Source: Desulfuromonadaceae bacterium
GTDB lineage: Bacteria; Desulfobacterota; Desulfuromonadia; Geobacterales; Pseudopelobacteraceae
Direction of reading: 5' to 3'
Assembly (NCBI GenBank): GCA_049305715.1
Contig: JBAQPK010000604.1
Span: 1 to 52,949, forward strand
DNA: 52,949 nucleotides
In this document: piece by piece, positions 22,842-45,980 of the stretch
How the letters are laid out: each line of letters starts with the position of its first letter
Position numbering within the stretch: the stretch's first letter is position 1
Translations under genes and position numbers: made by a program
Notes under the pieces: generated by a model
What the model saw: the letters and a program-made list of their open reading frames with translations, nothing else
What the model was told of the DNA's origin: nothing
Databases searched by the model: none

Positions 22842-23573
22842 TCATAAACCACACTGGCAGGGCGGATATTCCATCTCTTCCATGCTCGGCAATGCGGCTT
22901 GCCGGTCGTTTACGATCTGCCCCAAAACAATGCCATCACCCCGCAAGGAGAAAGGGGCTTTACCTTTCGCAACCCGAGCCTTCCGGGTTCTCTCTTCCAG
23001 CTTCTGGGCCTTGCAAAATAACTCAGGGTGGTTCATCCTCAATCCCTTCCATTGCGCCACCCGTTGATATGGGCAAAACCAGCAACCAGATTTTGGCGGG
23101 ATTTTCAACCCAGCCGATTCAATCAGGTTCTTGCAGCCATCCCGGTCAATGTCGTGTTCGATCAGCAGCCAACGCGATTCGACGCCCTTTTGCGTGTTCA
23201 TCCTGGCCCGCTTCGCTTCCCCTGCATCAATCCCCAGGTGCATAAAACATGGAGTTTTAATGTAGCGGTTAACCGGGATCACCTTGAAATCCTTGGTACA
23301 CCACCGCGCCATCATTGACGGCACCATCTCCATTTCCCAGCAATATTCGTACAGGTCATTGTAAGTCCGCCCCTGGTTCTTGCGGTAGCACTCTGGCTTT
23401 AAGATTGTCACCGGCCGGCCGGTCGCCACAAAATAATCCACATATTCGTAGGTTTCCGGGTAGTCTCCTCCGTGGTCAACAAACACGGCCTCAAACGCCA
23501 TACCTAGCCGCTCCATCAGGAGATAAAGTGCCACCGAGTTAACGCCAGCCCCGAAAGACAGATAGTTTTTCAT
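22842..23573 (-). CDS. PAPS reductase / PP-loop ATPase-like protein (243 aa)
   Basis: N-terminal PP-loop variant LSFGAGVNS and a C-terminal Cys pair (CWFCPY) typical of phage PAPS-reductase-like proteins. Confidence 0.75.
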   Translation of the reverse strand: MKNYLSFGAGVNSVALYLLMERLGMAFEAVFVDHGGDYPETYEYVDYFVATGRPVTILKPECYRKNQGRTYNDLYEYCWEMEMVPSMMARWCTKDFKVIPVNRYIKTPCFMHLGIDAGEAKRARMNTQKGVESRWLLIEHDIDRDGCKNLIESAGLKIPPKSGCWFCPYQRVAQWKGLRMNHPELFCKAQKLEERTRKARVAKGKAPFSLRGDGIVLGQIVNDRQAALPSMEEMEYPPCQCGL

Positions 23574-26074: not shown

Positions 26075-26248
26075 TCACTCGCCCCAGACCTTATCGCGCT
26101 TCATTTGCGCGATCATCGCCGATCCTAATCTGCCGAAGCCCATCATTTTCCCGCAGAGCAACCGGCGCAGAGTTGGAGCTTTCCAGCCTTTGCGCTCGGC
26201 GTATCGTGCCACTGTCCCGTACTTCTCGCGTATCTTTTTGGTGCTCAT
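26075..26248 (-). CDS. Hypothetical small protein (57 aa, MSTKKIREKYGTVARYAERKGW...)
   Basis: Internal ATG of track ORF 26075..26335, overlapping the DUF5131 stop (ATGA). Confidence 0.5.
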   Translation of the reverse strand: MSTKKIREKYGTVARYAERKGWKAPTLRRLLCGKMMGFGRLGSAMIAQMKRDKVWGE

Positions 26249-26970
26249 GGCATCTCCTGGCCTTGAAGGAAAGCGGGGATTGGTTCTTTCCTCGCCATCT
26301 GTTTCATAAAGAACGGCCACCCGGCCGCCGCGCATTGCGTTTTGAGATCATCGGCCCAAGGCGCTTCCATGTCCCTGGCCTGCGGCCCCGATTCACCACC
26401 GCAAATCACCCAATTAATCAGGCCATGCCCACATTCGATAATATTCATGTGTTGCCCTTCAGACAGGCAAAGCAACCATTCCGATCTCATCCGCACCGGC
26501 CCAATCATTGGCTCAACCGAAACGAAGCGGAGAGCCGCCGGGGTTTTGAGTAAAATCGGAATCCGCTGGTCAGCCATATCCTGATTCTCTGCCGTTACCC
26601 CGAGCCAGACATTGCGATACGGCCAGCCTTCCGGCAACCTTCCGGCGATATTCTCCGGCCGCTTGGTCAGCAGCATGTAAGTTAGGTGCGGAGTGCGGCG
26701 CATGATCTCCCACGCCTCGTCCCGCCATGCGTCGGCATCCTCGATAAAGAAGTCAGACCATGAGCAGACAAACACCTTGGCAGGTTCTTTCCACCTTAGC
26801 GGGGCATTAAATGTGTGCTGTTTCGACCTGATAACGATTGCCGGGTCTTGCCCATACCGTGCCTTGTCTCGGTACATATAGCAATGAGCGCAACCAGGCG
26901 ACACCTTGCGGCACCCTTGCCAGGGGTTCCACGTATGGTCGCACCATGATATGCCTGAATTTTTAGCCAT
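26245..26970 (-). CDS. Phage Gp37/Gp68 (DUF5131) family protein (241 aa)
   Basis: N-terminus SGISWCDHTWNPWQGCRKVSPGCAHCY is the hallmark opening of this family. ATG 26970 follows GGAGG (track start is 27027). Confidence 0.8.
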   Translation of the reverse strand: MAKNSGISWCDHTWNPWQGCRKVSPGCAHCYMYRDKARYGQDPAIVIRSKQHTFNAPLRWKEPAKVFVCSWSDFFIEDADAWRDEAWEIMRRTPHLTYMLLTKRPENIAGRLPEGWPYRNVWLGVTAENQDMADQRIPILLKTPAALRFVSVEPMIGPVRMRSEWLLCLSEGQHMNIIECGHGLINWVICGGESGPQARDMEAPWADDLKTQCAAAGWPFFMKQMARKEPIPAFLQGQEMP

Positions 26971-27008
26971 AAACCCTCCGATATTGATTAGTAAGAAGCT
27001 ATGTCGTG

Positions 27009-27037
27009 AATCTATCCCATCCGGCATATTATGTCAA
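27009..27037 (-). promoter_or_regulatory. Sigma70-like promoter candidate for the minus-strand early operon
   Basis: Minus strand TTGACA (27037..27032), 17 nt, TAGATT (27014..27009). Confidence 0.4.
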
Positions 27038-27081
27038 TGGTGAATAGTGAGTTTTATTTACACACAATGCCCAAATAACCC

Positions 27082-27110
27082 TTGACGCCATATTCCGGCC
27101 TTGGTACAAA
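27082..27110 (+). promoter_or_regulatory. Sigma70-like promoter candidate for the plus-strand early operon
   Basis: TTGACG (27082..27087), 17 nt, TACAAA (27105..27110), in the divergent intergenic region. Confidence 0.4.
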
Positions 27111-27150
27111 TAGCCATCACCGGAGCAAAACTAACTTGGAGGGTTTGGGT

Positions 27151-27369
27151 ATGCAGGGAGAAATAAACCACTTTTTTTATAGCGAGAAGCAAGCGGCTCT
27201 TTATAGCCGATCTGATAACCCCCAGCACAGAAACATCGCCTTGATCGAAGGGAATGAGGTTGTCTATACCTGCTGCTCTGATACCGCTGACCACGGCTGC
27301 CTGTTCGGCGATGAACAGCCTTTAGGTGTAGGCGTGTGGCTGAAGTGCGATGGCCACTGGAATAAATAG
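27151..27369 (+). CDS. Hypothetical protein (72 aa)
   Basis: Internal ATG of track ORF 27082..27369, preceded by GGAGGG. Confidence 0.5.
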   Translation: MQGEINHFFYSEKQAALYSRSDNPQHRNIALIEGNEVVYTCCSDTADHGCLFGDEQPLGVGVWLKCDGHWNK

Positions 27370-27396
27370 CCATCACCAACACACGGGAGGAAGGCG

Positions 27397-27672
27397 ATGA
27401 AAGCAAATATCAATGAGGTTTCCGGGAATGCCGCAGAGGTCACGCTGGACGGTGACGGCTGGCACGCAGTGGTCACGGCCAATATCGCGCTAGACGAAGG
27501 GCTTTACGAGGTCGTTCTTGATTCATGGATCGCCTTGACCGATGAGATTAAGATATGGGTTCCAAGCGCCCTGATATCTGGTAAGGAAACCGAGATTGCA
27601 GTTAACGAGGCCCTGGCCGCATATTACGAAGCGGATGCCGAGGCTACTAAAATTAACGAGTTGGAGGACTGA
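27397..27672 (+). CDS. Hypothetical acidic protein (91 aa)
   Basis: Track ORF with GGGAGGAAGG RBS. Confidence 0.6.
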   Translation: MKANINEVSGNAAEVTLDGDGWHAVVTANIALDEGLYEVVLDSWIALTDEIKIWVPSALISGKETEIAVNEALAAYYEADAEATKINELED

Positions 27673-27675
27673 AAA

Positions 27676-27873
27676 ATGCGTAAGGATAGAATTGAATTAA
27701 CCGATACACCCATGCCCATGATTATGAAAATGTCTGACGGCAACCCCGGCGCTGTCAATGTTTTGTGCCGGATGCTAAAAGAGGGCGAGGCCATCGACCG
27801 GGACAGCGCCCTTGGCGGATATGGCGCACTTCTGGGCATGGACACCCACGGGATTTACGGTTCCCGGATTTAG
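27676..27873 (+). CDS. Hypothetical protein (65 aa), possibly the N-terminal half of a TAG-split gene
   Basis: Track ORF ending ...THGIYGSRI-TAG. The next ORF starts at the very next codon. Confidence 0.55.
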   Translation: MRKDRIELTDTPMPMIMKMSDGNPGAVNVLCRMLKEGEAIDRDSALGGYGALLGMDTHGIYGSRI

Positions 27874-28092
27874 ATGCTTTACAACGATGTGTGCGGAGAG
27901 AACCTGGAAAACACCCTGGGGGTTCTCCGCGCCTGTCAGCTTGGGCATATTTCTGACTCTACCTTGAACCACGCCATAGATAACCGGGGCGAGGGGGTAG
28001 ACGTGGCGGCTCTGGTCGCTTACGTGAAGTCAGTATTGCCTGGATTTGGCGTTAAGGATGCCGAGGCCGTGAAGATTCAGGAGGCGGAATAG
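27874..28092 (+). CDS. Hypothetical protein (72 aa), possibly the C-terminal half of a TAG-split gene
   Basis: Track ORF MLYNDVCGENLENTLGVLRACQLG... I see no separate Shine-Dalgarno sequence upstream. Confidence 0.55.
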   Translation: MLYNDVCGENLENTLGVLRACQLGHISDSTLNHAIDNRGEGVDVAALVAYVKSVLPGFGVKDAEAVKIQEAE

Positions 28093-28093
28093 A

Positions 28094-28429
28094 ATGGACA
28101 TCCAAGCCAGCTTAGCGCCACGTTCCGAGGATGGCCGGAAAGGGACAATGCGCCAGACTGAAATTGAGTGCCACGAGTGCGGCCAGACGATTTATGCCGA
28201 CATTGACACCGGGATCAACGGGAATCATGTGATTCTCTGCCCTTGCGGCCACGAGCATTGCCGGGTAGTTGAAAGGGGCCGGATAACCTCTTCGCGGTGG
28301 GATCAAAGGAATAGAACTGCGTCAACGGTAACAGCTTCGACAACAACCACCGGAACGGATTTCTATATTTGGTCGAGTGTGACAATGACCAGTACAGCAT
28401 CTAGTTATTTTACTGTTGTTTGCGCTTAA
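28094..28429 (+). CDS. Zinc-ribbon protein (111 aa)
   Basis: CHECG ... CPCGHEHC motifs; AGGAGG upstream. Confidence 0.6.
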   Translation: MDIQASLAPRSEDGRKGTMRQTEIECHECGQTIYADIDTGINGNHVILCPCGHEHCRVVERGRITSSRWDQRNRTASTVTASTTTTGTDFYIWSSVTMTSTASSYFTVVCA

Positions 28430-28459
28430 CCAGCCTCACGGCTGATACAGGAGGAGAAA

Positions 28460-28927
28460 ATGAACGCAAAACTTTTAGCAGCAAAAGCCCGGATCGCGGC
28501 CATTGAATCACGGGTGGCGGGGATGCTGGCTGACAACACATACCGGACTATGCGGGATGAAACCATTGCCTATGATGGTTCATGCTTTCGTGAGGCCGAG
28601 GCAGAACTTACCGAGATCGCCGAAAGTTTGGAGCGCAAAGACGCGGCCAGGGAGTTGGCTTTATCCCGTGGCGACATCCTGCCCTATGGATATCCGGCTA
28701 CTGCATACGGGTGGGGTCGTGACCAGAGGACTAATTCACCGGCAGAACTGGCAGCCAAGCCGACCTTTACCGAACCGCCCCCGGAAGTGGCTGAACTGGT
28801 CAAAAGGTTGCGGTATTGCGACAGGGTTTGCATACTTGATGCGCCTGGAGGGCAAGGAACTTATAAAGAGCTAACCAGCGAAGAAATTGTCTGGGTGATT
28901 AAGGCTCTTGAGAATTACAAACCGTAA
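28460..28927 (+). CDS. Hypothetical protein (155 aa)
   Basis: Track ORF with GGAGGAG RBS. Confidence 0.65.
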   Translation: MNAKLLAAKARIAAIESRVAGMLADNTYRTMRDETIAYDGSCFREAEAELTEIAESLERKDAARELALSRGDILPYGYPATAYGWGRDQRTNSPAELAAKPTFTEPPPEVAELVKRLRYCDRVCILDAPGGQGTYKELTSEEIVWVIKALENYKP

Positions 28928-28945
28928 GAGAAAAGGGGGATGAAG

Positions 28946-29179
28946 ATGCCAACCATCACGATAAGAACGGACAAGTCAACGCCGAACTTTTGCGCTCTCG
29001 AAGCTGTGGCAATGTGGATGATGGATAATTACCTCACCAGGAATCATCTTAGTGAGCGAGAAATTGTCGTGAAAAGCGGCCGAAAGATCAAGGTCACGGA
29101 ACTCGCAAGGAAGAAAGGTAGCTCAATATGCAGTTGCCGGTTCAAGGCATCACTTGTTGGAAAAAATAAGGGGGAATGA
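28946..29179 (+). CDS. Hypothetical protein (77 aa)
   Basis: Track ORF 28940..29179; the second ATG has better spacing from AGGGGG. Confidence 0.55.
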   Translation: MPTITIRTDKSTPNFCALEAVAMWMMDNYLTRNHLSEREIVVKSGRKIKVTELARKKGSSICSCRFKASLVGKNKGE

Positions 29180-29473
29180 ATGCTAAATCCAATCGACTTC
29201 ACCGACCTACTGCCCGAGGTAGAGCAGACGCACCTTGGGGGGATTATCACCGGCAATCAGTTTATCGCCTTGTCCGTGGTCTTTGTGGCCATGGGCCTGC
29301 TGGTTCTGGCCGGGTTTCACGCCAGGGATTTCTTTGTTCCCCCGGCCAAGGGCAGCGTCATGGACTACCGGCCCGCGCCGATTGCTGGCAACATGGGGCA
29401 TATTGTAACCCCTGCAGAGGCTAAGATTAAATTCAGGGCCGCTCATCCGGAGTGGCGGGAGGTGGGAGAATGA
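29180..29473 (+). CDS. Small membrane protein (97 aa, one TM helix)
   Basis: Hydrophobic segment FIALSVVFVAMGLLVLAGF. Confidence 0.6.
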   Translation: MLNPIDFTDLLPEVEQTHLGGIITGNQFIALSVVFVAMGLLVLAGFHARDFFVPPAKGSVMDYRPAPIAGNMGHIVTPAEAKIKFRAAHPEWREVGE

Positions 29474-29625
29474 AAACGGTAAACATTGAACATTGCGGGG
29501 ATTGTCCGCACAGATATTACGAGGGCAACGATTTATACTGCGAAGAAACATCCTTGAAAACCAGCGAGAACGCCCCTATCCCGTCATGGTGCCCATTGAC
29601 AGACGCCAAAGAGGTGGCCAGATGA
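29470..29625 (+). CDS. Small Cys-rich ORF (51 aa, MKTVNIEHCGDCPHRYYEGNDLYCEE...WCPL...)
   Basis: ATGA overlaps at both ends. Below the track cutoff. Confidence 0.5.
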   Translation: MKTVNIEHCGDCPHRYYEGNDLYCEETSLKTSENAPIPSWCPLTDAKEVAR

Positions 29626-29912
29626 TCGCCACCCTCAAGCAAAAACGCCGGGAGGGAGTCAAGCGGATTGGCGAACTCCAGAAAGAGCGGCAGTCCCTTG
29701 ATGTGCAGATCGCCGTGGCCTCTACCGAGAAGCGGGTGAAGATTACCGAGGCGCGGCGGCGGAAAATCTACCCGCTCATTTTAGCGGATCTCGACAAGGG
29801 CCTGGATTTTCAGAAGGTGGCCCGCAACCTGAATATCCGTGGTTTCCGCAACGATGGCCGGGTCTGGCGGGCTGCGGCGGTTGAAACTGTCTGGCGGGAG
29901 GGAACGCTATGA
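29622..29912 (+). CDS. Small DNA-binding protein candidate (96 aa)
   Basis: Internal ATG of track ORF 29493..29912. The segment GLDFQKVARNLNIRGFRNDGRVWRAAAVETVW resembles the recombinase-type HTH region. Confidence 0.5.
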   Translation: MIATLKQKRREGVKRIGELQKERQSLDVQIAVASTEKRVKITEARRRKIYPLILADLDKGLDFQKVARNLNIRGFRNDGRVWRAAAVETVWREGTL

Positions 29913-30481
29913 CCGCCAAAAAGATGGCACCCCGCGACCAGTATTGCGAATGTGGCTGCGGTCTGAAGTTCGCTGGGCAGGCCGTGCTTAACGCCCGGTG
30001 GATTCGCGGCCATGAGGACAAGATGTGCGAGCTAATCAAGGCCGGGAAAGCTAAACCGCCTTTTGTCATAACCTGCCAGTTTTGTGAGCTCGAAGATGTC
30101 CCAGCCCTGGGCCGTGGCCAAAAGTATTGCACCGAGCGACTTACCGGGAGGAAATGCCAGCAGCAGGCCAAGGACGCGAACCGGTACGCCAAGGCCGGTC
30201 TGCCCAAAAAGCACACGCCCAGCAAGCCCTCCCCTAAATACAAATACCCATTCGACCGGGTTAAGGAGTGCCTGAAAGACACGGAAGGCCGCTGGTGTGA
30301 GTGTGTCGATAATGCCAGGTGCCTAGAGGCGGTATCTGAAGGTGGTTTGCCGAAGCTGCAATCTGGTATGGAGAAGCATTGCTACAGACCAACTCGGGCG
30401 GCTTCTGCCGGGTCGGCGATTGATTGCACGGTTTATCATTCTGAAAATAAACGGAGCCAGTCTAGCCGGGGGGCTCAATGA
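29909..30481 (+). CDS. Cys-rich hypothetical protein (190 aa)
   Basis: Track ORF with several CxC/CxxC pairs. Confidence 0.6.
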   Translation: MTAKKMAPRDQYCECGCGLKFAGQAVLNARWIRGHEDKMCELIKAGKAKPPFVITCQFCELEDVPALGRGQKYCTERLTGRKCQQQAKDANRYAKAGLPKKHTPSKPSPKYKYPFDRVKECLKDTEGRWCECVDNARCLEAVSEGGLPKLQSGMEKHCYRPTRAASAGSAIDCTVYHSENKRSQSSRGAQ

Positions 30482-30675
30482 AACTGAAACTTTGCGATGA
30501 CTGCCGGAGACTGTACCGGCCCACCAACGGGAAGCAAAGATATTGCCCCACCTGCGGCCAGCATCGTGCCACCGCCCAGCAGATGCAATCATTCCGTGGC
30601 AGTACGGTAAACCCGCTTTTCTTGCCGGAAACCCGCGAGGAGATAGAGGCGGTTATGGATGTTTTTGGGGATTAG
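30478..30675 (+). CDS. Zinc-ribbon protein (65 aa)
   Basis: CDDC ... CPTC motifs. Confidence 0.6.
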   Translation: MKLKLCDDCRRLYRPTNGKQRYCPTCGQHRATAQQMQSFRGSTVNPLFLPETREEIEAVMDVFGD

Positions 30676-30706
30676 TAAATAACTACACCGAATGGATTAA
30701 AAAATG

Positions 30707-30734
30707 TTGACTTGCCCGCTTGATAGGCTATTAT
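30707..30734 (+). promoter_or_regulatory. Sigma70-like promoter candidate
   Basis: TTGACT (30707..30712), 16 nt, TATTAT (30729..30734), with an A-rich upstream tract. Confidence 0.5.
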
Positions 30735-30763
30735 TCGGGACAGCGGACTTGCGCCGCGCATTG

Positions 30764-30875
30764 GGCCTTGGAACTCAAGCGATACCGATTAGTTTTCTTA
30801 CTCCGGCAACGGGAGGCTACCCCTCCGAACTTCCAAGGCTCAGATCGCGCCTCTCGTCTGCCGGGGTTTTTATTC
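30764..30875 (+). ncRNA. Structured RNA element, copy 1 (leader-to-loop helix plus large terminator hairpin), upstream of tRNA-Thr
   Basis: Helix X: GGCCTTGGAA (30764..30773) with TTCCAAGGCT (30831..30840). Helix Y: 30801..30816 with 30850..30866 (16 bp, one bulge), followed by TTTTTATT. Same architecture as 32383..32494, with compensatory changes. Confidence 0.5.
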
Positions 30876-30892
30876 AGCGTTTCCACCCCAAT

Positions 30893-30968
30893 GCCGTCAT
30901 AGCTCAGTTGGTAGAGCGCCTGCCTTGTAAGCAGGATGTCGCGGGTTCGATGCCTGCTGGCGGCTCCA
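30893..30968 (+). tRNA. trnT: tRNA-Thr (anticodon UGU), CCA encoded
   Basis: Cloverleaf read by hand: acceptor GCCGTCA/TGGCGGC, D arm GCTC-AGTTGGTA-GAGC, anticodon arm CCTGC-CTTGTAA-GCAGG, T arm GCGGG-TTCGATG-CCTGC, then T-CCA. Confidence 0.9.
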
Positions 30969-31087
30969 AAGATAACCTGTGTAGAAAAACGATTGCTGCC
31001 GCTAGACCGGCGACAGGCAACGGCCTCAAAACAGGGACACCCTACGAGACAGCAACACCGGAATCAGCCCCGGCCTGGGTTTCACTT

Positions 31088-31116
31088 TTGACCAGGAAAG
31101 CAAGCTCCCTGATAAT
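31088..31116 (+). promoter_or_regulatory. Sigma70-like promoter candidate
   Basis: TTGACC (31088..31093), 17 nt, GATAAT (31111..31116). Confidence 0.45.
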
Positions 31117-31240
31117 GTGCAATCGTTCCGGTTTGCCGGTTTGTTCTTCGGCCAGAAGGCAAAGCTATTAACTGCTGTCTAGATACGCCTAAAAATCGAG
31201 GGTGAAAGGCTGGCACCCTAGAATCGAGAGGAGGAGCGGC

Positions 31241-31519
31241 ATGAAGGCAAAACTCAGATGGAAGATGGAACCACGCGAAACCGGGTTACGGTCAATCGGA
31301 TCTGGCCCGAGAGGCTATTTTTACCATGACGGCGAAAAGGTTTACGCGCGCGTTTGTGCCCATGGTGGCAACTGGGCCAGACCGATGGCTGGATGGTATT
31401 GGGTCGCCGGGTGGGATTCAGATGTGCCATATCAGAACACGTCCGGTAGCCCCTGCGAGACGATAGACGAGGCCAAAACACAGGCGGCTGAATATGTGCG
31501 CCAGAATAGCATTGCATAA
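31241..31519 (+). CDS. Hypothetical protein (92 aa)
   Basis: Internal ATG of track ORF 31202..31519, preceded by GAGAGGAGGAG. Confidence 0.6.
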   Translation: MKAKLRWKMEPRETGLRSIGSGPRGYFYHDGEKVYARVCAHGGNWARPMAGWYWVAGWDSDVPYQNTSGSPCETIDEAKTQAAEYVRQNSIA

Positions 31520-31550
31520 GGGGCCTGTTCACATCGGCAGGCCCCTTTCG
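31520..31550 (+). terminator. Rho-independent terminator
   Basis: GGGGCCTG (31520..31527) pairs with CAGGCCCC (31538..31545), followed by TTT. Confidence 0.6.
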
Positions 31551-31580
31551 GAGAGTTCAAAAATCAAATAAGGAGGGTGT

Positions 31581-31811
31581 ATGATTAACCGGTAAGAAAT
31601 AATCAAGAAATATTCGTTTCTGCGGACCAACAATCACGACATCCCGGATGCAACAATCGAGTTTATCAAGGATGCAGCGTTAAGCGCGTATGATTCTCTG
31701 CATGATAAATACTGCGGGAAGTGCCAATTTAACGGGAAACAGATGGTTTACCCATCCCAATGTACCGGGTGCGGTGGGCATGGAGAGAAGCGCAATTTTA
31801 GGCTTGCATAG
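31581..31811 (+). CDS. Zinc-ribbon protein gene interrupted by an in-frame TAA at codon 5 (recoding candidate)
   Basis: AAGGAGGG then ATG 31581, ATT AAC CGG, TAA (31593..31595), then 71 open in-frame codons (EIIKKYSFLRTNNHDIPDATIEFIKDAALSAYDSLHDKYCGKCQFNGKQMVYPSQCTGCGGHGEKRNFRLA) ending at TAG 31809. No ATG/GTG/TTG before 31743. Confidence 0.5.
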
Positions 31812-31830
31812 GCGATACAAGATAAAGTTT

Positions 31831-32010
31831 TGGGTGGTGGCGGAATAGAGACGCTACCAGATTAACTGGTGAACCGGAGGGCAACCGAAGGCGAAAAGTG
31901 AGGGGAGGCCGTAGAAAAGCCGCCGTTGGGAATAAAACCAATGGGTGCGGACGATCTACGGTGAATGAGCTTGAATCTCCCCATGTCGGAATCGAATCCG
32001 GCCCACCCAA
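31831..32010 (+). ncRNA. tRNA-like structured RNA with a roughly 110-nt insertion at the variable-region position
   Basis: Closing helix TGGGTGG (31831..31837) with CCACCCA (32003..32009), directly preceded by the T-arm-like hairpin GTCGG/CCGGC (31985..32002). Hairpin ACCAG-ATTAA-CTGGT at 31856..31870. Long nested arm 31902..31982 (GGGGAG/CTCCCC, CCGTAG/CTACGG, CCGC/GCGG, TTGG/CCAA). Confidence 0.4.
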
Positions 32011-32036
32011 TTTAATCATTTCCTGGAGGGGAAAAC

Positions 32037-32333
32037 ATGAAAAAAGACGAAATCATCGCCAAGATTAACGACACTTCTGGGCGGATTTCTGATCTGCAAA
32101 ACGACAAGATAGGGCTTCTTGCCAAGCTTGCCGAAACCGTCTCTCCCTACAGAGTCGGCGAGATAGTGGATACCAAAGGGTACAGCTACCGAGGATCAAA
32201 ATGCAAGATTTCTCGTATCTCAGCCCAACCGACATACAATGGCAAATTCGAACTGCACGTGAATGGCAACGTCCTCAAAGCAAACGGCGAGGAAGGTGCC
32301 AGACAATGCGATTGGGACGAGAAAATCAGCTAA
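32037..32333 (+). CDS. Hypothetical protein (98 aa)
   Basis: Track ORF with GGAGGGG RBS. Confidence 0.6.
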   Translation: MKKDEIIAKINDTSGRISDLQNDKIGLLAKLAETVSPYRVGEIVDTKGYSYRGSKCKISRISAQPTYNGKFELHVNGNVLKANGEEGARQCDWDEKIS

Positions 32334-32344
32334 TCGAATAACCC

Positions 32345-32372
32345 TTGCATCCATTTCCAGATAGTATATCAT
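32345..32372 (+). promoter_or_regulatory. Sigma70-like promoter candidate
   Basis: TTGCAT (32345..32350), 16 nt, TATCAT (32367..32372). Confidence 0.5.
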
Positions 32373-32382
32373 AAATCACATG

Positions 32383-32494
32383 GAGCCGCGAACTCTGAAC
32401 AAATCCAGAATTATCTTCCCCCGGCTGGCCGTTTGGCCTTCAAAACTTCGCGGCTCTGATTCCAAGCGGCTGGCCGGGGGATTCCCTTTTTATA
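32383..32494 (+). ncRNA. Structured RNA element, copy 2 (leader-to-loop helix plus large terminator hairpin), upstream of the recombination genes
   Basis: Helix A: GAGCCGCGAA (32383..32392) with TTCGCGGCTC (32447..32456), 10 perfect bp. Helix B: 32417..32431 with 32467..32481 (15 bp including two G-U pairs), followed by TTCCCTTTTTAT. Confidence 0.5.
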
Positions 32495-32510
32495 CCAGGA
32501 GAGAAACACG

Positions 32511-32687
32511 ATGGAAACCAATGAAGAAATAGCGGAAGCGAACAGAGTATTCGCAGTAACCACCTTTTGCCCGCTCACTAAAGATAAGTGCAGGGTGGAT
32601 TGCATTTGTTTCGGGACACGGCAAATGAACAGCACGGGGACAATGTATGGCCCATACTGCGGGAACCATATGTTTTCCGGCGAATAA
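32511..32687 (+). CDS. Small Cys-rich ORF (58 aa, METNEEIAEANRVFAVTTFCPLTKDKCRVDCICFG...)
   Basis: AGGAGA RBS. Below the track cutoff. Directly upstream of recT. Confidence 0.5.
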   Translation: METNEEIAEANRVFAVTTFCPLTKDKCRVDCICFGTRQMNSTGTMYGPYCGNHMFSGE

Positions 32688-32709
32688 TTTAACCTGGAGG
32701 TAATTAACA

Positions 32710-33612
32710 ATGACTGAGGACAAGACCGAACCAGAAACCAAAGCCCTTGCGCCGTGGGTCGAGACGATCAGGAAGACTGAGGACAAGTTCCACGAAATCA
32801 CCAAGGCCAGCGGCACAGAAGTAGCTTTTGCCGTTGAATCAATGTTCGCTTTCCAGGCGGTGAGCCGCAACGATTACACCAAGGGGATTGCCGAGAAGAA
32901 CCTGCCCTCGCTTCGTGATGCCATTATAAACATTGCCAGTATCGGCCTTTCGCTTAACCCGGCCATGCAATATGCCTACCTTGTCCCGCGAGACGGGGCT
33001 ATCTGCCTGGATATATCCTACAAGGGCCTTATCAAGCTGGCAACTGATACCGGGTCAATGCTGTGGGTCAGAGCCGACCTTGTTTATGAGCGCGACCAGT
33101 TCACATATCGCGGCCCGGCTACCGCCCCGACCCATGAGGCAGATGTGTTCGGCGACCGTGGCGCCTTTGTCGGGGTTTACTGTATCGCCAAGACTATCGA
33201 GGGCGATATTCTGGTGGAGGTCATGACCGCCAAGGAGATTGAACAGGTCAGGGACACCTCCCAGGCGTGGGCGAAAAAGAAGGCTGGCCCGTGGCGTGAC
33301 TGGTTCGGCGAAATGACCAAGAAGACCATCATCAAGAGGGCGTCGAAGACCTGGCCGCGAAGCGACAAGAACGACCGGCTGGCGCAAGCGGTGGAGGTCA
33401 TTAACCAGCATGAGGGCTTCGCGCCGGATGTGGTTGACGCGGTGCAAATGTTGACCGATGAGCAGGAGAACGAGATTCACGCTTTCATCGAAGACAACAA
33501 CCTTGACCGGCAGCGGTTTTTCAAGACCTTCCACATTGACAGCATCGGCCAGCTTTCGCCCAAGGACTTCCCCCGCGCTATGGTTGCCTTGAAGGCTATG
33601 GTGGGGCGATGA
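32710..33612 (+). CDS. recT: RecT-family single-strand annealing protein (300 aa)
   Basis: Segment IINIASIGLSLNPAMQYAYLVPRDG...ISYKGLIKLA is typical of RecT. Followed by a YqaJ-type exonuclease. Confidence 0.85.
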   Translation: MTEDKTEPETKALAPWVETIRKTEDKFHEITKASGTEVAFAVESMFAFQAVSRNDYTKGIAEKNLPSLRDAIINIASIGLSLNPAMQYAYLVPRDGAICLDISYKGLIKLATDTGSMLWVRADLVYERDQFTYRGPATAPTHEADVFGDRGAFVGVYCIAKTIEGDILVEVMTAKEIEQVRDTSQAWAKKKAGPWRDWFGEMTKKTIIKRASKTWPRSDKNDRLAQAVEVINQHEGFAPDVVDAVQMLTDEQENEIHAFIEDNNLDRQRFFKTFHIDSIGQLSPKDFPRAMVALKAMVGR

Positions 33613-34208
33613 TAACGCTTAATATTCCCCAAGGCACTCCCGAGTGGAAGGCCGAGAAGTGCGGCAAGCCGTCATCAAGCCACTTTGATGAGATTATCAC
33701 ATCTAAGGGGGCACGATCAAAGCAATGGGAAAAGTACCTTTATAAGCTGGCAGGAGAAAGAATCACTGGCGTCCAGGCAGACAACTTTTCGAGCGGCCCG
33801 ATGGCCGGTGGCGTTGAAAAAGAACCAGAGGCCCGGGAATTATGGCAACTCCTGAATAACATCGAAGTAGATCAGGTCGGAGTATGCTACCGGGATGAAT
33901 CACGGGATTTTCTATGTTCCCCAGACGGGCTAATAGGCTCAGATGGAGGGCTGGAAATCAAGTGCCCATTGATCCATACCCACGTAGAGTATCTCCTTGA
34001 CGCCAAATTGCCGACAGCTTATTTCCAGCAGGTTCAGGGCAGCCTCTTCGTCACTGGCCGGGAATATTGGGAGTTTATGAGCTACTACCCAGGAATGAGG
34101 CCGCTCATCCTCACGGTCAAGCCTGATCCGGTATTCCATGCGGCCCTTGGTGCGGCTCTGGTTGAATTTTGCGCCCAGCTTGACAAGGTAACTGAGGCAA
34201 TCAGATGA
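33609..34208 (+). CDS. YqaJ-like (lambda Exo type) recombination exonuclease (199 aa)
   Basis: GTPEWKAEKCGK N-terminus and the GLEIKCP core of the PD-(D/E)xK YqaJ family. 4-nt overlap with recT. Confidence 0.85.
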   Translation: MITLNIPQGTPEWKAEKCGKPSSSHFDEIITSKGARSKQWEKYLYKLAGERITGVQADNFSSGPMAGGVEKEPEARELWQLLNNIEVDQVGVCYRDESRDFLCSPDGLIGSDGGLEIKCPLIHTHVEYLLDAKLPTAYFQQVQGSLFVTGREYWEFMSYYPGMRPLILTVKPDPVFHAALGAALVEFCAQLDKVTEAIR

Positions 34209-34417
34209 AACGAAGATCAGACCAGTGCCTATTCTGCCACCGACGCGCCTGCTACGAGCGTGTGGTTTCTTCCCGAGACAACGGGGCCGCCTATGATGAG
34301 GTAGCCTGCGATGCCCACCGCGCCGAACTTTACGCCCACTCGGATAAGCTGGTAGGCGTGAAGAAGCATTTTATCAGCAGCACCGGGAAGCAGAAGCGCG
34401 GGGAGCCGGTTGAATGA
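34205..34417 (+). CDS. Hypothetical Cys/His-rich protein (70 aa)
   Basis: Track ORF with a CLFCHRRAC motif. Confidence 0.55.
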   Translation: MKRRSDQCLFCHRRACYERVVSSRDNGAAYDEVACDAHRAELYAHSDKLVGVKKHFISSTGKQKRGEPVE

Positions 34418-34566
34418 AGCGCACCGTTAACTCTGCGGAATCATTGTCGATCGTTATTGGCGACCTTCGTGAACTGTTCAAGACCGAGAAGTATATCCAG
34501 GTCAGCGTCACCACCGGGAAATCTCGTTCATTGAACCAGAACGCCATTGCAGGAGAACTAGCATGA
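34414..34566 (+). CDS. NinB-like N-terminal fragment (50 aa)
   Basis: ...IQVSVTTGKSRSLNQNAIA matches the NinB core (V-x-V-T...RSLDQN) and then stops. ATGA overlaps on both sides. Confidence 0.4.
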   Translation: MKRTVNSAESLSIVIGDLRELFKTEKYIQVSVTTGKSRSLNQNAIAGELA

Positions 34567-35012
34567 AACCGCCTGAGATTGTGGCGACCATAACTGATGA
34601 CCTTACTCTATCCTTTGATATCCCGCGTATGTTGCAAGCTGTCTTGGCCGGGATCGGCAAGGGTGAAAAGGTCAGGGTGGATATTCGCAAGTGGTACAAA
34701 AAGCGCACCCTTGACCAGAACGCTACCATCTGGGGGCCTGATTACGCCCTGATTATACCATACGTTTTGCAGACTACCGGCCAGAGTTTTGACCCTGAAG
34801 AGTTGCACGACTTCCACAAGCGAAAGTTTCTCGGATTCGATGAAGCAAAGGGCTTTCCGGGGCTGTACCGAGTGAAGTCAACCAAGGGGCTTGATACCGT
34901 GGGCTTTGCAACATTCCGGGAATACTACTGCCGGTTCTGGGCAGAAAACGGCCTTTACATCCCCGACCCCGACCCAGCTAAAAAGAAGGTTGGTAAAACC
35001 AAATCTTCATAG
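34563..35012 (+). CDS. NinB-like recombination protein candidate (149 aa)
   Basis: EKVRVDIRKWYKKRTLDQNATIWG repeats the RSLDQN-type motif, here in a full-length protein. Confidence 0.5.
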   Translation: MKPPEIVATITDDLTLSFDIPRMLQAVLAGIGKGEKVRVDIRKWYKKRTLDQNATIWGPDYALIIPYVLQTTGQSFDPEELHDFHKRKFLGFDEAKGFPGLYRVKSTKGLDTVGFATFREYYCRFWAENGLYIPDPDPAKKKVGKTKSS

Positions 35013-35115
35013 TATATTTCACAAGCGGATAGGGTAGCTCCCGACAAGGCGTGATTCATCACCATGCTTTCCGCTTCCTCCCTGTGATGATAGACTTTGA
35101 TGGAGGTCTGCCTAA

Positions 35116-35652
35116 ATGCTTACCCAAGAAAAAGTAAAAGCTCTGTTTGACTATCTTCCGACCGGCGAGTTGATATGGAAAGTCCGTCTATCTAATAGAA
35201 TAAATATCGGCGATACAGCAGGTCATACGCGTCGGGGAGGGTATTTAATTACAGGGATAGGTGGCAAGATTTATTACAACCATCGACTTGTGTGGCTATG
35301 GCATCATGGGTATTTACCTGAAAACTACATAGATCATATTGACAGAAACACATCGAACGCGAGGATTGAAAATTTAAGGGAAGTGTCTATGTCGTGTAAC
35401 TTACGGAACGCCAAGCAACCGATAAACAACACTTCTGGGGTTAAAGGCGTGTCGTTCAACAATAAAAACAAAACATGGCTAGCGCATATCCATTGCGAGG
35501 GAAAGTTGTTGAACATCGGGACGCATAAAGACTTCGGTGAAGCTGTTTGCCACCGCCTTGCGGTAGAGCAGGCTTTAGATTGGGGAGGGTGCGACTCTTT
35601 AAGCCCTGCCGCCTTATATGTGAAAACCAACATAACCCGGTCACTTCGCTGA
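35116..35652 (+). CDS. HNH homing endonuclease with AP2 DNA-binding domain (178 aa)
   Basis: HRLVWLWHHGYLPENYIDHIDRNTSNARIENLR (HNH_3 type) followed by SGVKGVSFNNKNKTWLAHI (AP2-like). Locally AT-richer. Confidence 0.85.
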   Translation: MLTQEKVKALFDYLPTGELIWKVRLSNRINIGDTAGHTRRGGYLITGIGGKIYYNHRLVWLWHHGYLPENYIDHIDRNTSNARIENLREVSMSCNLRNAKQPINNTSGVKGVSFNNKNKTWLAHIHCEGKLLNIGTHKDFGEAVCHRLAVEQALDWGGCDSLSPAALYVKTNITRSLR

Positions 35653-35882
35653 TGAAGGTCAAGCAGTTGAGCGAGTACCTGGATCATGTGCAAGCGCATT
35701 ACAAGACACTTTCCAGATTGGCTGCTCTGCCGGCTGTGTTTGTGAGGTTGAAGAGGACACCGAGGTCTGGGCGGTGCGGATGTGGAACAGAAGGGCAGTG
35801 TAACGCCAAACTCAGCGGAGCCGCCGCTGAAATAACAATAAATTGCCCGACATTCTCGGCTTCCGCTGAAACGTATTGTTAA
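35652..35882 (+). CDS. Hypothetical protein (76 aa)
   Basis: Internal ATG of track ORF 35547..35882, overlapping the HNH stop (TGATG). Confidence 0.4.
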   Translation: MKVKQLSEYLDHVQAHYKTLSRLAALPAVFVRLKRTPRSGRCGCGTEGQCNAKLSGAAAEITINCPTFSASAETYC

Positions 35883-35903
35883 ACCTTTTAAAGGAGCAAT
35901 TTA

Positions 35904-36299
35904 ATGGAAAAGCATTTCGTAGTGTTCTCCAGCCCCGGCAGCTTCATGGCTGAACAGACTCAGAAGGAAATAGCGGCCTGGGATATTGAAACGGCAAAGA
36001 AGATGGCGAGGGGCATTAAAGAAAGGCACGGGGCGTTGCCCTACGGCTTTCAGTTTGTGACCAGGGAGCGAGGGGAGGAAGACTTTGACAGCAAGGAAAC
36101 CAAGAGAAGCCACATGTACTACCTCGGCGGGCGGATTTGGACTCTGGGCGAGCTGAAGGCCCGGAACGACCCAAAAGACAGCATCCTGATTTCCAATATG
36201 GAATGCAACCACTGGCCCAGGGTGATAGAAAACAACAACTCTTGGAAATGGACGCAGCCACTCCAGGACTTGGATGTTGTCTTAGATTTTGAGGTTTAA
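35904..36299 (+). CDS. Hypothetical protein (131 aa)
   Basis: Track ORF with AGGAG RBS. Confidence 0.6.
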   Translation: MEKHFVVFSSPGSFMAEQTQKEIAAWDIETAKKMARGIKERHGALPYGFQFVTRERGEEDFDSKETKRSHMYYLGGRIWTLGELKARNDPKDSILISNMECNHWPRVIENNNSWKWTQPLQDLDVVLDFEV

Positions 36300-36337
36300 C
36301 AGTAGTATTAGGCCGACAACGGAATAATCAGGATATT

Positions 36338-36616
36338 ATGCGACACTGGCGATTTACCAGGGAACAGGCGCAATCTGGAGCCGCAAAGCGTCTCAGCAAA
36401 ATCCTCGCCGCTGAACCGCCAGAATATCCACAAGGGAGGGTGCCCGGTGAAATAATCCAACGCCAGAACGGGCAGGAGCTAATTGTCGCATTGTTTCCGT
36501 GGGGCCGCTGCACTCAGTACCGGGCGGTGTTCCCTGACGGGGAGGGAATAAAGGGCGGCATGGGACAGATCCATGCGGAAATCAGGCGGAGAATACCGCC
36601 GTTGTGGGGGTGGTGA
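36338..36616 (+). CDS. Hypothetical protein (92 aa)
   Basis: Track ORF; last gene of the plus-strand operon, convergent with 36582..37196. Confidence 0.5.
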   Translation: MRHWRFTREQAQSGAAKRLSKILAAEPPEYPQGRVPGEIIQRQNGQELIVALFPWGRCTQYRAVFPDGEGIKGGMGQIHAEIRRRIPPLWGW

Positions 36617-37196
36617 TCCTCCGCATGGTCTGGCCAAAGTTTGCCGCGTCGAACCATGTCGAATGCCCGAAGTCTGGCTCTATGACAACCTGGATATTCC
36701 CTGACGGCTCAATCGGGCCACCCTGCCCGAGCGTGCCATAGCCCAGAGCCCGCCCAAGGAAGGTATCAGCGGCCTCAAGGGCGGCATCCTGGCCAGCGAT
36801 ATAGACCACGATCCGCTCAAACGACACCCACCCGACATTAAGCCCGTTCTCGTTCCAGTTGGCTTTGCAGGCTGGAGCGATCATGTGCAACTCTTTTATC
36901 CTCGGCCAGCCCATTAAGGCCAGGGCGTCAAGAGCCACATCGGCACCGTTTGAGTGCGTCCCAATGGAAACCGTGAACCCCTTGGCGAGATACCGCTGGA
37001 TGGTTTTGACGGTCTTCTCGGCCCGTTCCTGCTCACCCATCGGCCGCAACAGTGGATTGACGTAATATTCAATCTTCTCGGCGAAAGTTTCCAGCTCGGT
37101 GTGGCAATGGGTAACCGCCTTGCCAGTCCAGTTCTTCGCCTCTCCTGGATGGTTCCCAACACCGCAGATAAAGATGAAGACGTGTTTCTCAGCCAT
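36582..37196 (-). CDS. Alpha/beta-hydrolase-like serine esterase candidate (204 aa)
   Basis: Nucleophile-elbow-like GTHSNG and a later His (DFGHSTW). ATG 37196 (MAEKHVFIFICGVGNHPG...) within track ORF 36582..37244. Confidence 0.55.
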   Translation of the reverse strand: MAEKHVFIFICGVGNHPGEAKNWTGKAVTHCHTELETFAEKIEYYVNPLLRPMGEQERAEKTVKTIQRYLAKGFTVSIGTHSNGADVALDALALMGWPRIKELHMIAPACKANWNENGLNVGWVSFERIVVYIAGQDAALEAADTFLGRALGYGTLGQGGPIEPSGNIQVVIEPDFGHSTWFDAANFGQTMRRITTPTTAVFSA

Positions 37197-44708: not shown

Positions 44709-45980
44709 TCATACCCTGACCAGATTTAGATTAGAGTGCCTTATTGTCACATCTGACGCATCGGTTTCGTTTCTAGCCACTAACCATATCCGATCCCCAA
44801 CAGCCACCGTCATAATACCAGCCGTTCCGCAAGAACCATAGTCAGTAGTTGAGAACTTCCGCGAGACAGCAATATTATCCTTTGATGTCGTATTTTGCAT
44901 TACTTCAAATTTAAATGTTTTATTAGCCAAAGCGGAAAAGGCGGTGTTTGTCATAGACACCTTGTAAGCTCCAGCGCTGCCAGCAGAAGCCAGGAGATAA
45001 TCGCCCATTGCCCAAGCCCCTGCCTCATTGGCAACAAAAGCCTTGGTGACATAGAAAGTGTCAGCTGAAACCTTGGTGATACTATAGGTGCCATTATAGT
45101 TGGTAGTTGCGTGGATGGTGATAATATCCCCGGTCAAAAGACCATGCGCCACATCGGTTATCAAAATGGTCCCGGCAACAGTGCCAGAATAATCGGCTAC
45201 ACTGGCAATCACACCATCTTTGCCAGCCACAAGCGTAAACCCGACCAATGAGCCTGCCATATTGTTCACCAAAGCATGGTAGACATTCACCGTGCCGATG
45301 GAAGTAGCAACGGCGTTTTCATACGAGTACATTTCCGCGTGTGCGGCTGTTGCTGATGACAGGGTGATTGTCCCGTCTCCGTCATCAGTTACCGCGATCT
45401 GATTAGATGTCCCTGCTACCCAGGCCGCCAGGTTGGCGCTTACGGTCTTCTTGTTCGCATCTGTCGCAAGTAGTCGGGTAGCAGTAGCACTTGACAGAAG
45501 GATTGACCCTGGCAAGGTGATCGTGATTGTCCCGTCTGTGTCGTCTGTGACTGTAACCTTATCGGTTGTCCCGGCAACCCAATCCGCAAGGTTGGCAACG
45601 CTGGCAGTTTTCTTATCGTCCCCGGTTGCCAGTAACCGCGAGGCAGTTGCCCCAGAAAGCAGAATCGAATCAGGAAGGGTAATTCTGACCTTGCCCCCAG
45701 CAATATCCGACACCGTGATTTTATCGGCCACCCCTTCGATAAAGGCCGCCAAAAAGAGCACAGAGACAAGTTTGGTATTTGCATCAGAGGCAATCAGCCT
45801 GTTGGCGATTATCCCCGGCCACCCGATAAGCTCGGCAATTTCAGAATTAGACAGCTCGATATTCCGCCCAACCCGCTCAAACAAAGCCCGGAAAAAACTC
45901 TGCCAGACCGGGTGCATATTCCCGCGCTGGTCGTACATCATTACGCGGGGGACGTCGGGGAGGGTTAGGTTGGTGGTCAT
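44709..45980 (-). CDS. Tail fibre protein with internal tandem repeats (423 aa)
   Basis: Its ATG overlaps the giant ORF stop (ATGA). Three ~47-54-aa repeats (RLLATGDDKKTASVANLADWVAGTTDKVTVTDDTDGTITITLPGSILLSSATA type). Confidence 0.75.
   Translation of the reverse strand: MTTNLTLPDVPRVMMYDQRGNMHPVWQSFFRALFERVGRNIELSNSEIAELIGWPGIIANRLIASDANTKLVSVLFLAAFIEGVADKITVSDIAGGKVRITLPDSILLSGATASRLLATGDDKKTASVANLADWVAGTTDKVTVTDDTDGTITITLPGSILLSSATATRLLATDANKKTVSANLAAWVAGTSNQIAVTDDGDGTITLSSATAAHAEMYSYENAVATSIGTVNVYHALVNNMAGSLVGFTLVAGKDGVIASVADYSGTVAGTILITDVAHGLLTGDIITIHATTNYNGTYSITKVSADTFYVTKAFVANEAGAWAMGDYLLASAGSAGAYKVSMTNTAFSALANKTFKFEVMQNTTSKDNIAVSRKFSTTDYGSCGTAGIMTVAVGDRIWLVARNETDASDVTIRHSNLNLVRV
45345..45803 (-). 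repeat. Three tandem coding repeats (~140-160 nt each) inside the tail fibre gene
   Basis: aa 60-113, 114-167 and 168-212 of the 423-aa protein align with each other. Confidence 0.7.

Follow-up and report, generated by a model that had tools for sequence, protein, structure and literature searches.

Phage leader elements with a predicted long-range helix reaching into the loop of an intrinsic terminator

Why should an early phage promoter be followed almost at once by what looks like an intrinsic terminator, ahead of a transfer RNA (tRNA) gene in one case and of a recombination operon in another, and why should the loop of that terminator hold the complement of the 5' segment of the same transcript? 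This question is raised by two short elements, copy 1 (w1, positions 30761-30875) and copy 2 (w2, 32381-32494), of a contig of 52,949 nucleotides (nt) (GenBank JBAQPK010000604.1, assembly GCA_049305715.1), hereafter the window. An initial annotation of the window had described copy 1 as a structured RNA with a paralogue, the two differing by compensatory changes. In this work, we analyzed both copies, searched for relatives and weighed the functions that the arrangement might serve. The clasped-terminator leader, as we call it after its long-range helix, is by its predicted structure a new and previously undescribed RNA family. We tentatively read it as a cis-acting leader RNA of phage early units with a conditional intrinsic terminator that is modulated by the long-range helix, and which would probably set the amount of readthrough into tRNA and recombination genes.

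Two interleaved helices in copies 1 and 2

Segments are named here by their place in the two helices: A is the 5' strand and A' its complement in the terminator loop, B and B' are the arms of the terminator hairpin, L1 and L2 are the linker and loop segments, and Z is a 5' extension. All lie on the + strand. In copy 1, GGCCTTGGAA (30764-30773) and TTCCAAGGCT (30831-30840) form nine Watson-Crick pairs and one G-U pair, and the helix grows to 13 base pairs (bp) when the whole of A (TTGGGCCTTGGAA, 30761-30773) is set against A' (TTCCAAGGCTCAG, 30831-30843). The A' strand is held in the 33-nt loop of the terminator-type hairpin that had been described there, which is formed by B (30800-30816) and B' (30850-30867) and counts 17 pairs rather than 16, with one bulged C and two G-U pairs, and is followed by the U-tract TTTTTATT (30867-30874). 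The linker L1 (30774-30799) is 26 nt long and G-poor, and the pyrimidine-rich L2 (30817-30830) could pair locally with the last nucleotides of B as a GGAGG/CCTCC hairpin. Upstream, a sigma70-like promoter (30707-30734; -35 TTGACT, 16-nt spacer, -10 TATTAT; 10/12 matches in a consensus scan) would start transcription near 30741, placing Z (30741-30760) at the head of the RNA.

Copy 2 has the same order of parts. Its A (TGGAGCCGCGAA, 32381-32392), about 2-5 nt from the predicted 5' end of the transcript, pairs with A' (TTCGCGGCTCTG, 32447-32458) over 12 bp counting two wobble pairs, GAGCCGCGAA and TTCGCGGCTC matching at 10/10 positions; A' again lies in the terminator loop, here of 25 nt, between B (32417-32436) and B' (32462-32481), which form 20 pairs, several of them G-U. 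The layout was said to be the same in both copies, and this holds for the order but not for the terminator end, where a 5-nt spacer, TTCCC (32482-32486), parts the stem from the U-tract TTTTTAT (32487-32493; T-run 32487-32491). The copy 2 promoter (32345-32372; TTGCAT, 16-nt spacer, TATCAT) is likewise sigma70-like; it fell below the threshold of the consensus scan and was read by eye, aligns with the copy 1 promoter with GATAGnnTATnAT in common, and would start transcription near 32379. The conserved flanks GAA-CTC and AAC-TTC are indeed common to the two window copies, but they do not extend to the wider family described below.

The motif shared by the two copies occurs at these two sites only, with 0.00 matches expected in shuffled sequence, and a shuffled 5' part yields an equally good A:A' helix at P ~0.001 per window copy. 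When the strands are exchanged, A of one copy and A' of the other pair at 6/9 and 4/9 positions only.

Both elements are followed by genes without a promoter of their own. The tRNA-Thr gene (anticodon TGT, 30893-30968, + strand) starts 17 nt past copy 1, and no promoter was found in the 17 nt between the U-tract and the gene, so that the tRNA is predicted to be reachable only via readthrough of the putative copy 1 terminator, as had been proposed. Copy 2 runs directly into the ribosome-binding site (RBS) of an open reading frame (ORF) of 58 residues, the first of an operon (32497-34208, + strand) that comprises the RBS AGGAGAG (32497-32503), the 58-residue ORF (32511-32687), RecT (32710-33612) and a YqaJ-type exonuclease (33609-34208). 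There is no promoter between the copy 2 terminator and the first gene, and the RecT/YqaJ operon is therefore predicted to depend on readthrough of that terminator as well. As a separate observation, the tRNA-Thr gene looks inserted when window positions 30876-30990 are compared with positions 2815-2870 of the L184 locus, where the orthologous element has its tail, TTTTTTATTCAGCGTcaTTCACCCC, and a downstream motif, CAAAGAaAACaaCCTGTGcAG (CCAAAGATAACCTGTGTAG in the window), in common with copy 1 but lacks a tRNA between them.

A family of elements around RecT genes

Relatives were sought with RecT homologues as anchor: the flanking DNA was scanned by a script for the order A, B, A', B' followed by a T-run, and every scripted candidate was then read by eye. 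The family was sampled around RecT genes only. Homologous elements, whose absence the initial annotation had named as grounds for its refutation, are present in seven other uncultured-phage contig groups, with ten further firm members and one doubtful one (L207), which brings the firm members to 12 with w1 and w2. The ten are L040_1 and L040_2, which flank RecT-YqaJ, L041, L002 (identical in L003 and L180-183), L179, L184_1, L184_2, L193, L236 and L199. The order promoter, A, B, A', B', U-tract is constant, so that the interleaving noted in the window copies recurs in all firm members, and all of these are on the same strand as RecT. Upstream of A, all 12 have a promoter whose hexamers (TTGACA-like and TAnnnT) are 16-18 nt apart except in L199 (~19 nt), and each has a terminator stem of 7-28 pairs, G+C-rich at its base, ahead of a tract of U4-8. 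The terminator loops are large throughout (20-33 nt), and A lies 55 to 73 bp from A'. With relaxed thresholds, matches occurred at ~23 per Mb in RecT-linked loci versus ~1.5 per Mb in ~2.6 Mb of unrelated viral loci, a ~15-fold enrichment.

The changes between members are compensatory in the true sense, as had been claimed for the two window copies. Nine members were aligned by hand with artificial 16-nt anchors because MAFFT failed to register the helices, whether the sequences were natural or N-padded, and the following pair counts come from an alignment that is fitted to the structure by construction. In each of the nine, the cognate A and A' pair at 9/9 positions, against a mean of 4.3/9 for non-cognate combinations, and all nine A:A' helices differ in sequence; at the base of the terminator, cognate pairing is 7/7 versus 3.4/7. 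All 183 cells (100%) are paired, 22 of the 23 pairs change on both sides, none of 500 shuffles matched the observed measures, and pairing drops to 33-56% when the partners are slid by 1-3 columns. Since the alignment follows the structure, independent evidence comes instead from the recurrent layout and from the per-element shuffle test of A:A', which gave P ~0.0003-0.002 in seven of nine members. It is the RNA of the + strand that is predicted to fold, as judged from the numerous G-U pairs and from the placing of promoters and U-tracts.

Neither Rfam nor the cultured phage records yielded a match to the family. With Rfam 15, only tRNA was found at gathering scores in the whole window, and at E<=10 positions 30600-32600 gave tRNA plus noise far below threshold, in agreement with the initial view that no known riboswitch or leader could be recognized; L040, L041 and L184 gave no match at E<=1. 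An exact-pattern scan for the motif of both window copies gave no match in IMG/VR and 29 matches in JGI metagenomes, all of them chance, as they lack both A:A' pairing and a terminator. When the conserved tails TTTTTATTCAGCGTTTC and GGGCTTTTTTATTTGCA were scanned for, only coding-region coincidences and generic terminators came up. By blastn against 50,697 cultured phage records, neither the early region nor a concatenate of nine elements gave an element match, and a RecT search of genome contigs returned one irrelevant locus only.

The element is, as far as comparison of these loci can tell, a movable cassette separate from the RecT gene, because the close RecT relatives L001 and L037/L038 have the promoter but not the element. 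In these relatives (70-76% identity in RecT), the RecT operon is preceded by a conserved promoter region, CTTTATTTTGTnAAAAGGTAAAAnAAAAGGTTGCnT...TATACA (L001 1-70; L037 80-150; L038 300-370), and has a short leader with no terminator; gain or loss of the cassette at this site is therefore possible. On the - strand of L037, opposite RecT, there is also a perfect 16-bp inverted repeat, AAGCGACTTGTTGCGG ... CCGCAACAAGTCGCTT, with its halves 44 nt apart (reverse-complement coordinates 3648-3723), which is unrelated to the family. The copies within one phage are more alike than positional orthologues elsewhere in the case of the window pair, which have GAACTC, TCTTnCnCCGGC and AACTTC in common, and of the L040 pair, which have GATCCnGG..A.GA, AACTTT and GGGnTCAGA in common, but not in that of the L184 pair. 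This likeness points to a recent duplication, to gene conversion or to a constraint specific to the phage.

Folding, control of termination and rival explanations

Two types of element were distinguished. Type 1 (w1, L040_2, L184_1 and L179) has a Z segment of 20-26 nt ahead of A, and three of its four members (w1, L040_2 and L184_1) have in common the tail TTTTTATTCAGCGT, which identifies them as orthologues; their A:A' sequences are unrelated. In type 2 (w2, L040_1, L041, L002, L184_2 and L236), Z is missing and A mostly lies a few nt from the transcription start, at ~0-5 nt from the predicted start in w2, L040_1, L041, L002 and L236. Five of the six type 2 members (w2, L041, L002, L184_2 and L236) have an RBS, a start codon or a gene start 10-20 nt past the U-tract, with no promoter between. 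L1 is 38% A and 10% G, L2 and the 5' half of A' are pyrimidine-rich, and A is purine-rich.

Folding was predicted with ViennaRNA, which considers nested structures only, and agreed with the anatomy read from the sequence. The minimum-energy folds of type 1 prolong the A:A' rod through pairing of Z with B', in copy 1 between GCGGAC (30743-30748) and GTCTGC (30856-30861, in the 3' arm of the terminator), and the full-length nested ensemble gives the base of the terminator a probability of 0.00-0.16, so that the antiterminator rod is favoured. In an RNA ending just before B', the A:A' helix is formed at a probability of at least 0.89 in 10/13 elements. The A:A' duplexes (-12.6 to -25.5 kcal/mol) and the terminator hairpins (-16 to -39 kcal/mol) are about equally stable, and the clasp should form first because A' precedes B'.

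On the tentative reading given at the outset, host RNA polymerase would start at a strong sigma70 promoter and A, the first 10-14 nt of the element, would emerge first, in most members within a few nt of the 5' end of the RNA. B would emerge next, followed by A' in the future terminator loop, and A would capture A' on its emergence, before B' exists, shutting B in a closed loop. In type 1, as in copy 1, Z would lengthen the rod by pairing with B' and thus produce a classical antiterminator; in type 2, as in copy 2, the clasp would hinder the terminator sterically or topologically, or the two would form a large pseudoknot together. Depending on the balance, transcription would then either stop, leaving an RNA of 100-135 nt, or read through into tRNA-Thr (copy 1) or the RecT-YqaJ operon (copy 2). 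We infer two things here, a lowering of termination by A:A' and regulation of the balance as such. An antiterminator that does not overlap its terminator has a precedent, since an intrinsic terminator can be suppressed by stable structures beside it that have no nucleotides in common with it, probably through competition for the RNA exit channel (bioRxiv 10.64898/2026.06.17.733018).

Several of our own results weigh against this interpretation. The Z:B' helices of type 1 are not individually significant against shuffles (P=0.03-0.87), the contiguous helix of copy 1 being at the upper end (P=0.87). In type 2, A:A' and B:B' have no nucleotides in common, and the full-length nested ensemble favours the terminator (0.65-0.99). 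With linkers of 15-29 nt and hairpins of 16-26 pairs in most members, a very large pseudoknot containing both helices is sterically plausible in most of the family. In L193, the linker is 8 nt long, the hairpin has ~21 bp and A' abuts B', so that the two helices cannot both form fully; whether they coexist or exclude each other may therefore differ between members. Besides, the hand alignment was registered on the helices, which biases its pair counts in favour of the structure; the promoters, the termination and the readthrough are read from the sequence; and no regulatory input was identified, no protein but RecT and YqaJ being common to the contigs. A dedicated partner encoded by the phage nearby is accordingly unlikely, though the contigs are short, and a conserved phage trans-acting factor was rejected as a candidate, RecT and YqaJ being the only proteins that the element-bearing contigs have in common.

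An alternative to which we give an appreciable, if clearly smaller, chance is that each element is a free-standing small-RNA gene, whose terminated pseudoknotted product of 100-135 nt would act in trans on host or phage targets or proteins, with readthrough as leakage. A:A' would bury the 5' end, and B:B' together with the U-tail would guard the 3' end, making the RNA very stable. The type 1 units w1 and L184_1 are not directly followed by a gene, and in L184 ~340 nt of non-coding sequence without a tRNA come after the unit; moreover, a U-rich stretch before the hairpin and a U5-7 tail resemble the Hfq-binding module of enterobacterial small RNAs, and the linker and hairpin lengths given above, which correlate (r=0.70, P=0.03, n=9), allow the pseudoknot in most members. 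However, no region is both single-stranded and conserved, as a seed would be, and five members stand directly upstream of an RBS with no other promoter, as leaders are placed. The linkers of L193 and of the doubtful L207 are too short for a pseudoknot, and the correlation vanishes if strand length takes the place of pair number (r=0.24). A tracking of hairpin length by linker length was rejected for these reasons, the correlation being weak and dependent on the measure and L193 contradicting it.

It is quite unlikely, in our judgement, that the terminator is constitutively leaky at a fixed ratio and senses nothing, A:A' merely pairing the triphosphate 5' end against RppH and RNase E. Emory, Bouvet and Belasco reportedly found in 1992 that protective 5' stem-loops need near-terminal placement, and the position of A in the five type 2 members closest to their predicted start would suit this role, as would the lack of conserved loop sequence and of any trans-acting factor found. 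Yet a short local hairpin would protect equally well, and the constant place of the partner strand in the terminator loop would be left unexplained. The large loop (20-33 nt) is kept in all members though it should weaken a plain terminator, and type 1 has 20-26 unpaired or separately folded nt before A. That the arrangement is a feature of the DNA (protein operators, or recombination sites in the form of inverted repeats) or a product of chance is very improbable. Helices are inverted repeats in DNA, and A and A' do flank the start of each transcription unit; but the many G-U pairs would be A-C mismatches on the other strand and meaningless in duplex DNA, the A-to-A' spacing varies over the range given above, modules of one phage have unrelated A sequences and would each need their own protein, and a U-tract follows every B' on the + strand. 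Chance is excluded by the shuffle tests, the covariation and the enrichment in RecT-linked loci.

A further and improbable reading is that the terminated short RNA is itself the regulator, in a self-propagating termination switch made of RNA only. Early nascent leaders would clasp in cis and read through; the terminated RNA would then show A' in its apical loop and A as a free 5' tail, and would pair in trans with A or A' of later nascent leaders, blocking the clasp and causing termination. Each early operon would thereby shut off after a delay set by the strength of its own promoter, and the element-specific A:A' sequences, with the limited cross-pairing of w1 and w2 (6/9 and 4/9), would keep the units independent. 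The logic would be related to that of P4 immunity, with its CI RNA and seqA/seqC, and to that of the IsrK isoforms, but built into the terminator.

Several known systems have some of these properties. Phage HK022 has putL and putR, each consisting of two adjacent local stem-loops of ~70 nt that make polymerase resistant to downstream terminators, acting in cis on host RNA polymerase with no phage protein needed. Like our elements, they are two paralogous RNAs per phage that lie just past early promoters and are defined less by sequence than by structure; by inspection, they differ in having neither a terminator nor a long-range helix from the 5' end to a loop. The T4 gene 32 mRNA has a pseudoknot with the same interleaved order at the 5' end of a DNA-metabolism mRNA; compared with such H-type pseudoknots, our elements have much longer helices (9-14 bp and 16-28 bp), one of which forms a terminator, and the coexistence of the two is putative. 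In the lambda PR'-tR' unit, which yields 6S RNA, a constitutive promoter is followed by a terminator almost at once, ahead of an operon. Stx phages carry the PR'-tR' unit ahead of tRNAs, and the short terminated RNA is its default product. The genes concerned are late in lambda and early or recombination genes here. Lambda Q acts via a DNA site and a promoter-proximal pause, with no RNA structure beyond the terminator (PMC4825925); neither a Q-like protein nor a pause element was found in the window.

There is also a likeness in pairing logic to the P4 CI RNA (seqA, seqC), the P1/P7 C4 RNA and IsrK of Gifsy-1, in which a 5'-proximal leader segment is complementary to a stem-loop of the same unit, the specificity sequences diverge while complementarity is kept, and the pairing controls premature termination (PMC4825925). 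The complementarity of A' in a hairpin loop to A in the leader, specific to each element, is of the C4 type, and IsrK also has short terminated and readthrough forms (PMC4825925). In contrast to these systems, the complement lies here in the terminator loop and not in a separately processed RNA (C4-type RNAs are released by RNase P and cause termination in trans), there are no evident processing sites, and the Rfam models of those RNAs do not match. Leaders with terminator and antiterminator, on the other hand, resemble the family in being promoter-proximal and untranslated, with an intrinsic terminator just before the first gene and an earlier structure that competes with it, and the so-called tug-of-war riboswitches resemble type 2 in that the competing structure contains no terminator nucleotides (bioRxiv 10.64898/2026.06.17.733018). 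Unlike attenuators and riboswitches, which have their competing structure upstream of or overlapping the terminator, the helix described here would tie the transcript's 5' end to the loop of the terminator itself and enclose the 5' arm, and there is neither a conserved ligand pocket, nor conserved loop nucleotides, nor a known effector.

A metabolite riboswitch is unlikely because no loop or junction nucleotides are conserved: the nine-member MAFFT alignment has a single invariant column, and the linkers are biased in composition only. In the 12 firm members the G+C-rich hairpin and U-tract of an intrinsic terminator lie on the transcribed strand, the spacer of w2 being as described, but the short loop (typically 3-8 nt) is missing: the apical loops measure 12-31 nt even when all predicted inner pairs are counted, and since this exceeds the typical size the consensus scan reports only a 5-bp fragment for copy 1. 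A leader peptide or a Shine-Dalgarno/anti-Shine-Dalgarno switch was rejected, as start codons do not recur at a fixed place and the complementarity of A' to the RBSs that follow is inconsistent. So was a ribozyme like that of hepatitis delta virus, which has the same interleaved topology; there was no Rfam match, P1 is too long and U-tracts are present. In 5/9 members, the promoter spacer/-10 region is complementary to L1 over 6-10 bp (Fisher P=0.0027, post hoc), in the window at 30717-30723 with 30775-30781 and at 32359-32365 with 32410-32416, and also in L040 and L002. This stretch is transcribed only in RNA reading in from upstream. A different handling of locally initiated and read-in transcripts was considered and rejected, added upstream RNA having no consistent effect on the predicted A:A' helix.

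Should the clasp control termination, the family would represent a regulatory architecture with little precedent, in which a helix ties the 5' end to the terminator loop, and a natural example of a neighbouring RNA structure that suppresses intrinsic termination without sequence overlap. Phages that rely wholly on the host polymerase could in this way time early, recombination and tRNA genes without a dedicated antiterminator protein, and the helix sequences being freely exchangeable, such cassettes could serve as orthogonal parts in synthetic biology. On the most ordinary reading, the elements are a new covariation-supported RNA family for Rfam.

Phage context and neighbouring features

The window represents all or much of a phage genome. 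Its - strand carries genes for the large terminase subunit, a P22-like portal, the major head protein, tail proteins, an endolysin, a helicase and a primase, and small early-type genes form a + strand block from ~27100 to 36700, which holds RecT, the YqaJ-type exonuclease, a NinB/Orf homologue and an HNH endonuclease. The closest cultured relatives of the portal, those of Vibrio VvAW1, Thalassomonas BA3 and Xylella Xfas53, are only ~38% identical to it, which points to a proteobacterium as the probable host. The sequence of the window is otherwise known from one soil-metagenome run only. No phage RNA polymerase was detected among the window proteins, and the host polymerase therefore presumably transcribes the whole window.

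Gene calls across these leaders should be viewed with caution. An ORF of 155 residues (30704-31171, + strand) that spans the copy 1 promoter, the element and tRNA-Thr is a gene call in the public assembly and likewise in L006/L007; it is almost certainly spurious, as is an ORF of 50 residues (32380-32532) spanning copy 2. Gene calls beginning within the L041 and L179 elements are probably spurious too.

The + strand early block opens with a promoter, TTGACG...TACAAA (~27082-27110), that is followed by no clasp-terminator element; the string AATAACCCTTG is common to the upstream part of this promoter (27073-27083) and of the copy 2 promoter (32337-32347). Directly upstream of a 98-residue gene at 32037, 222 nt without a convincing ORF (31815-32036) fold far better than their shuffles (z = -3.99; 0/200 shuffles as good) with a long-range closing helix and no Rfam match, and may be a second structured RNA or leader. 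An ORF of 2257 residues (45977-52750, - strand) adjoins the tail genes and matches the large PHROGs of unknown function phrog_18222 and phrog_616; it has an endolysin-like segment at about residues 1224-1372, an RNA polymerase signature was not found in it, and its product is probably an ejected internal virion protein. Three accessory genes, all on the - strand, encode a radical-SAM protein (6706-7665, among the structural genes), a PAPS-reductase-like protein (22842-23573) and a DUF5131 (phage Gp37/Gp68) protein (26245-27027).

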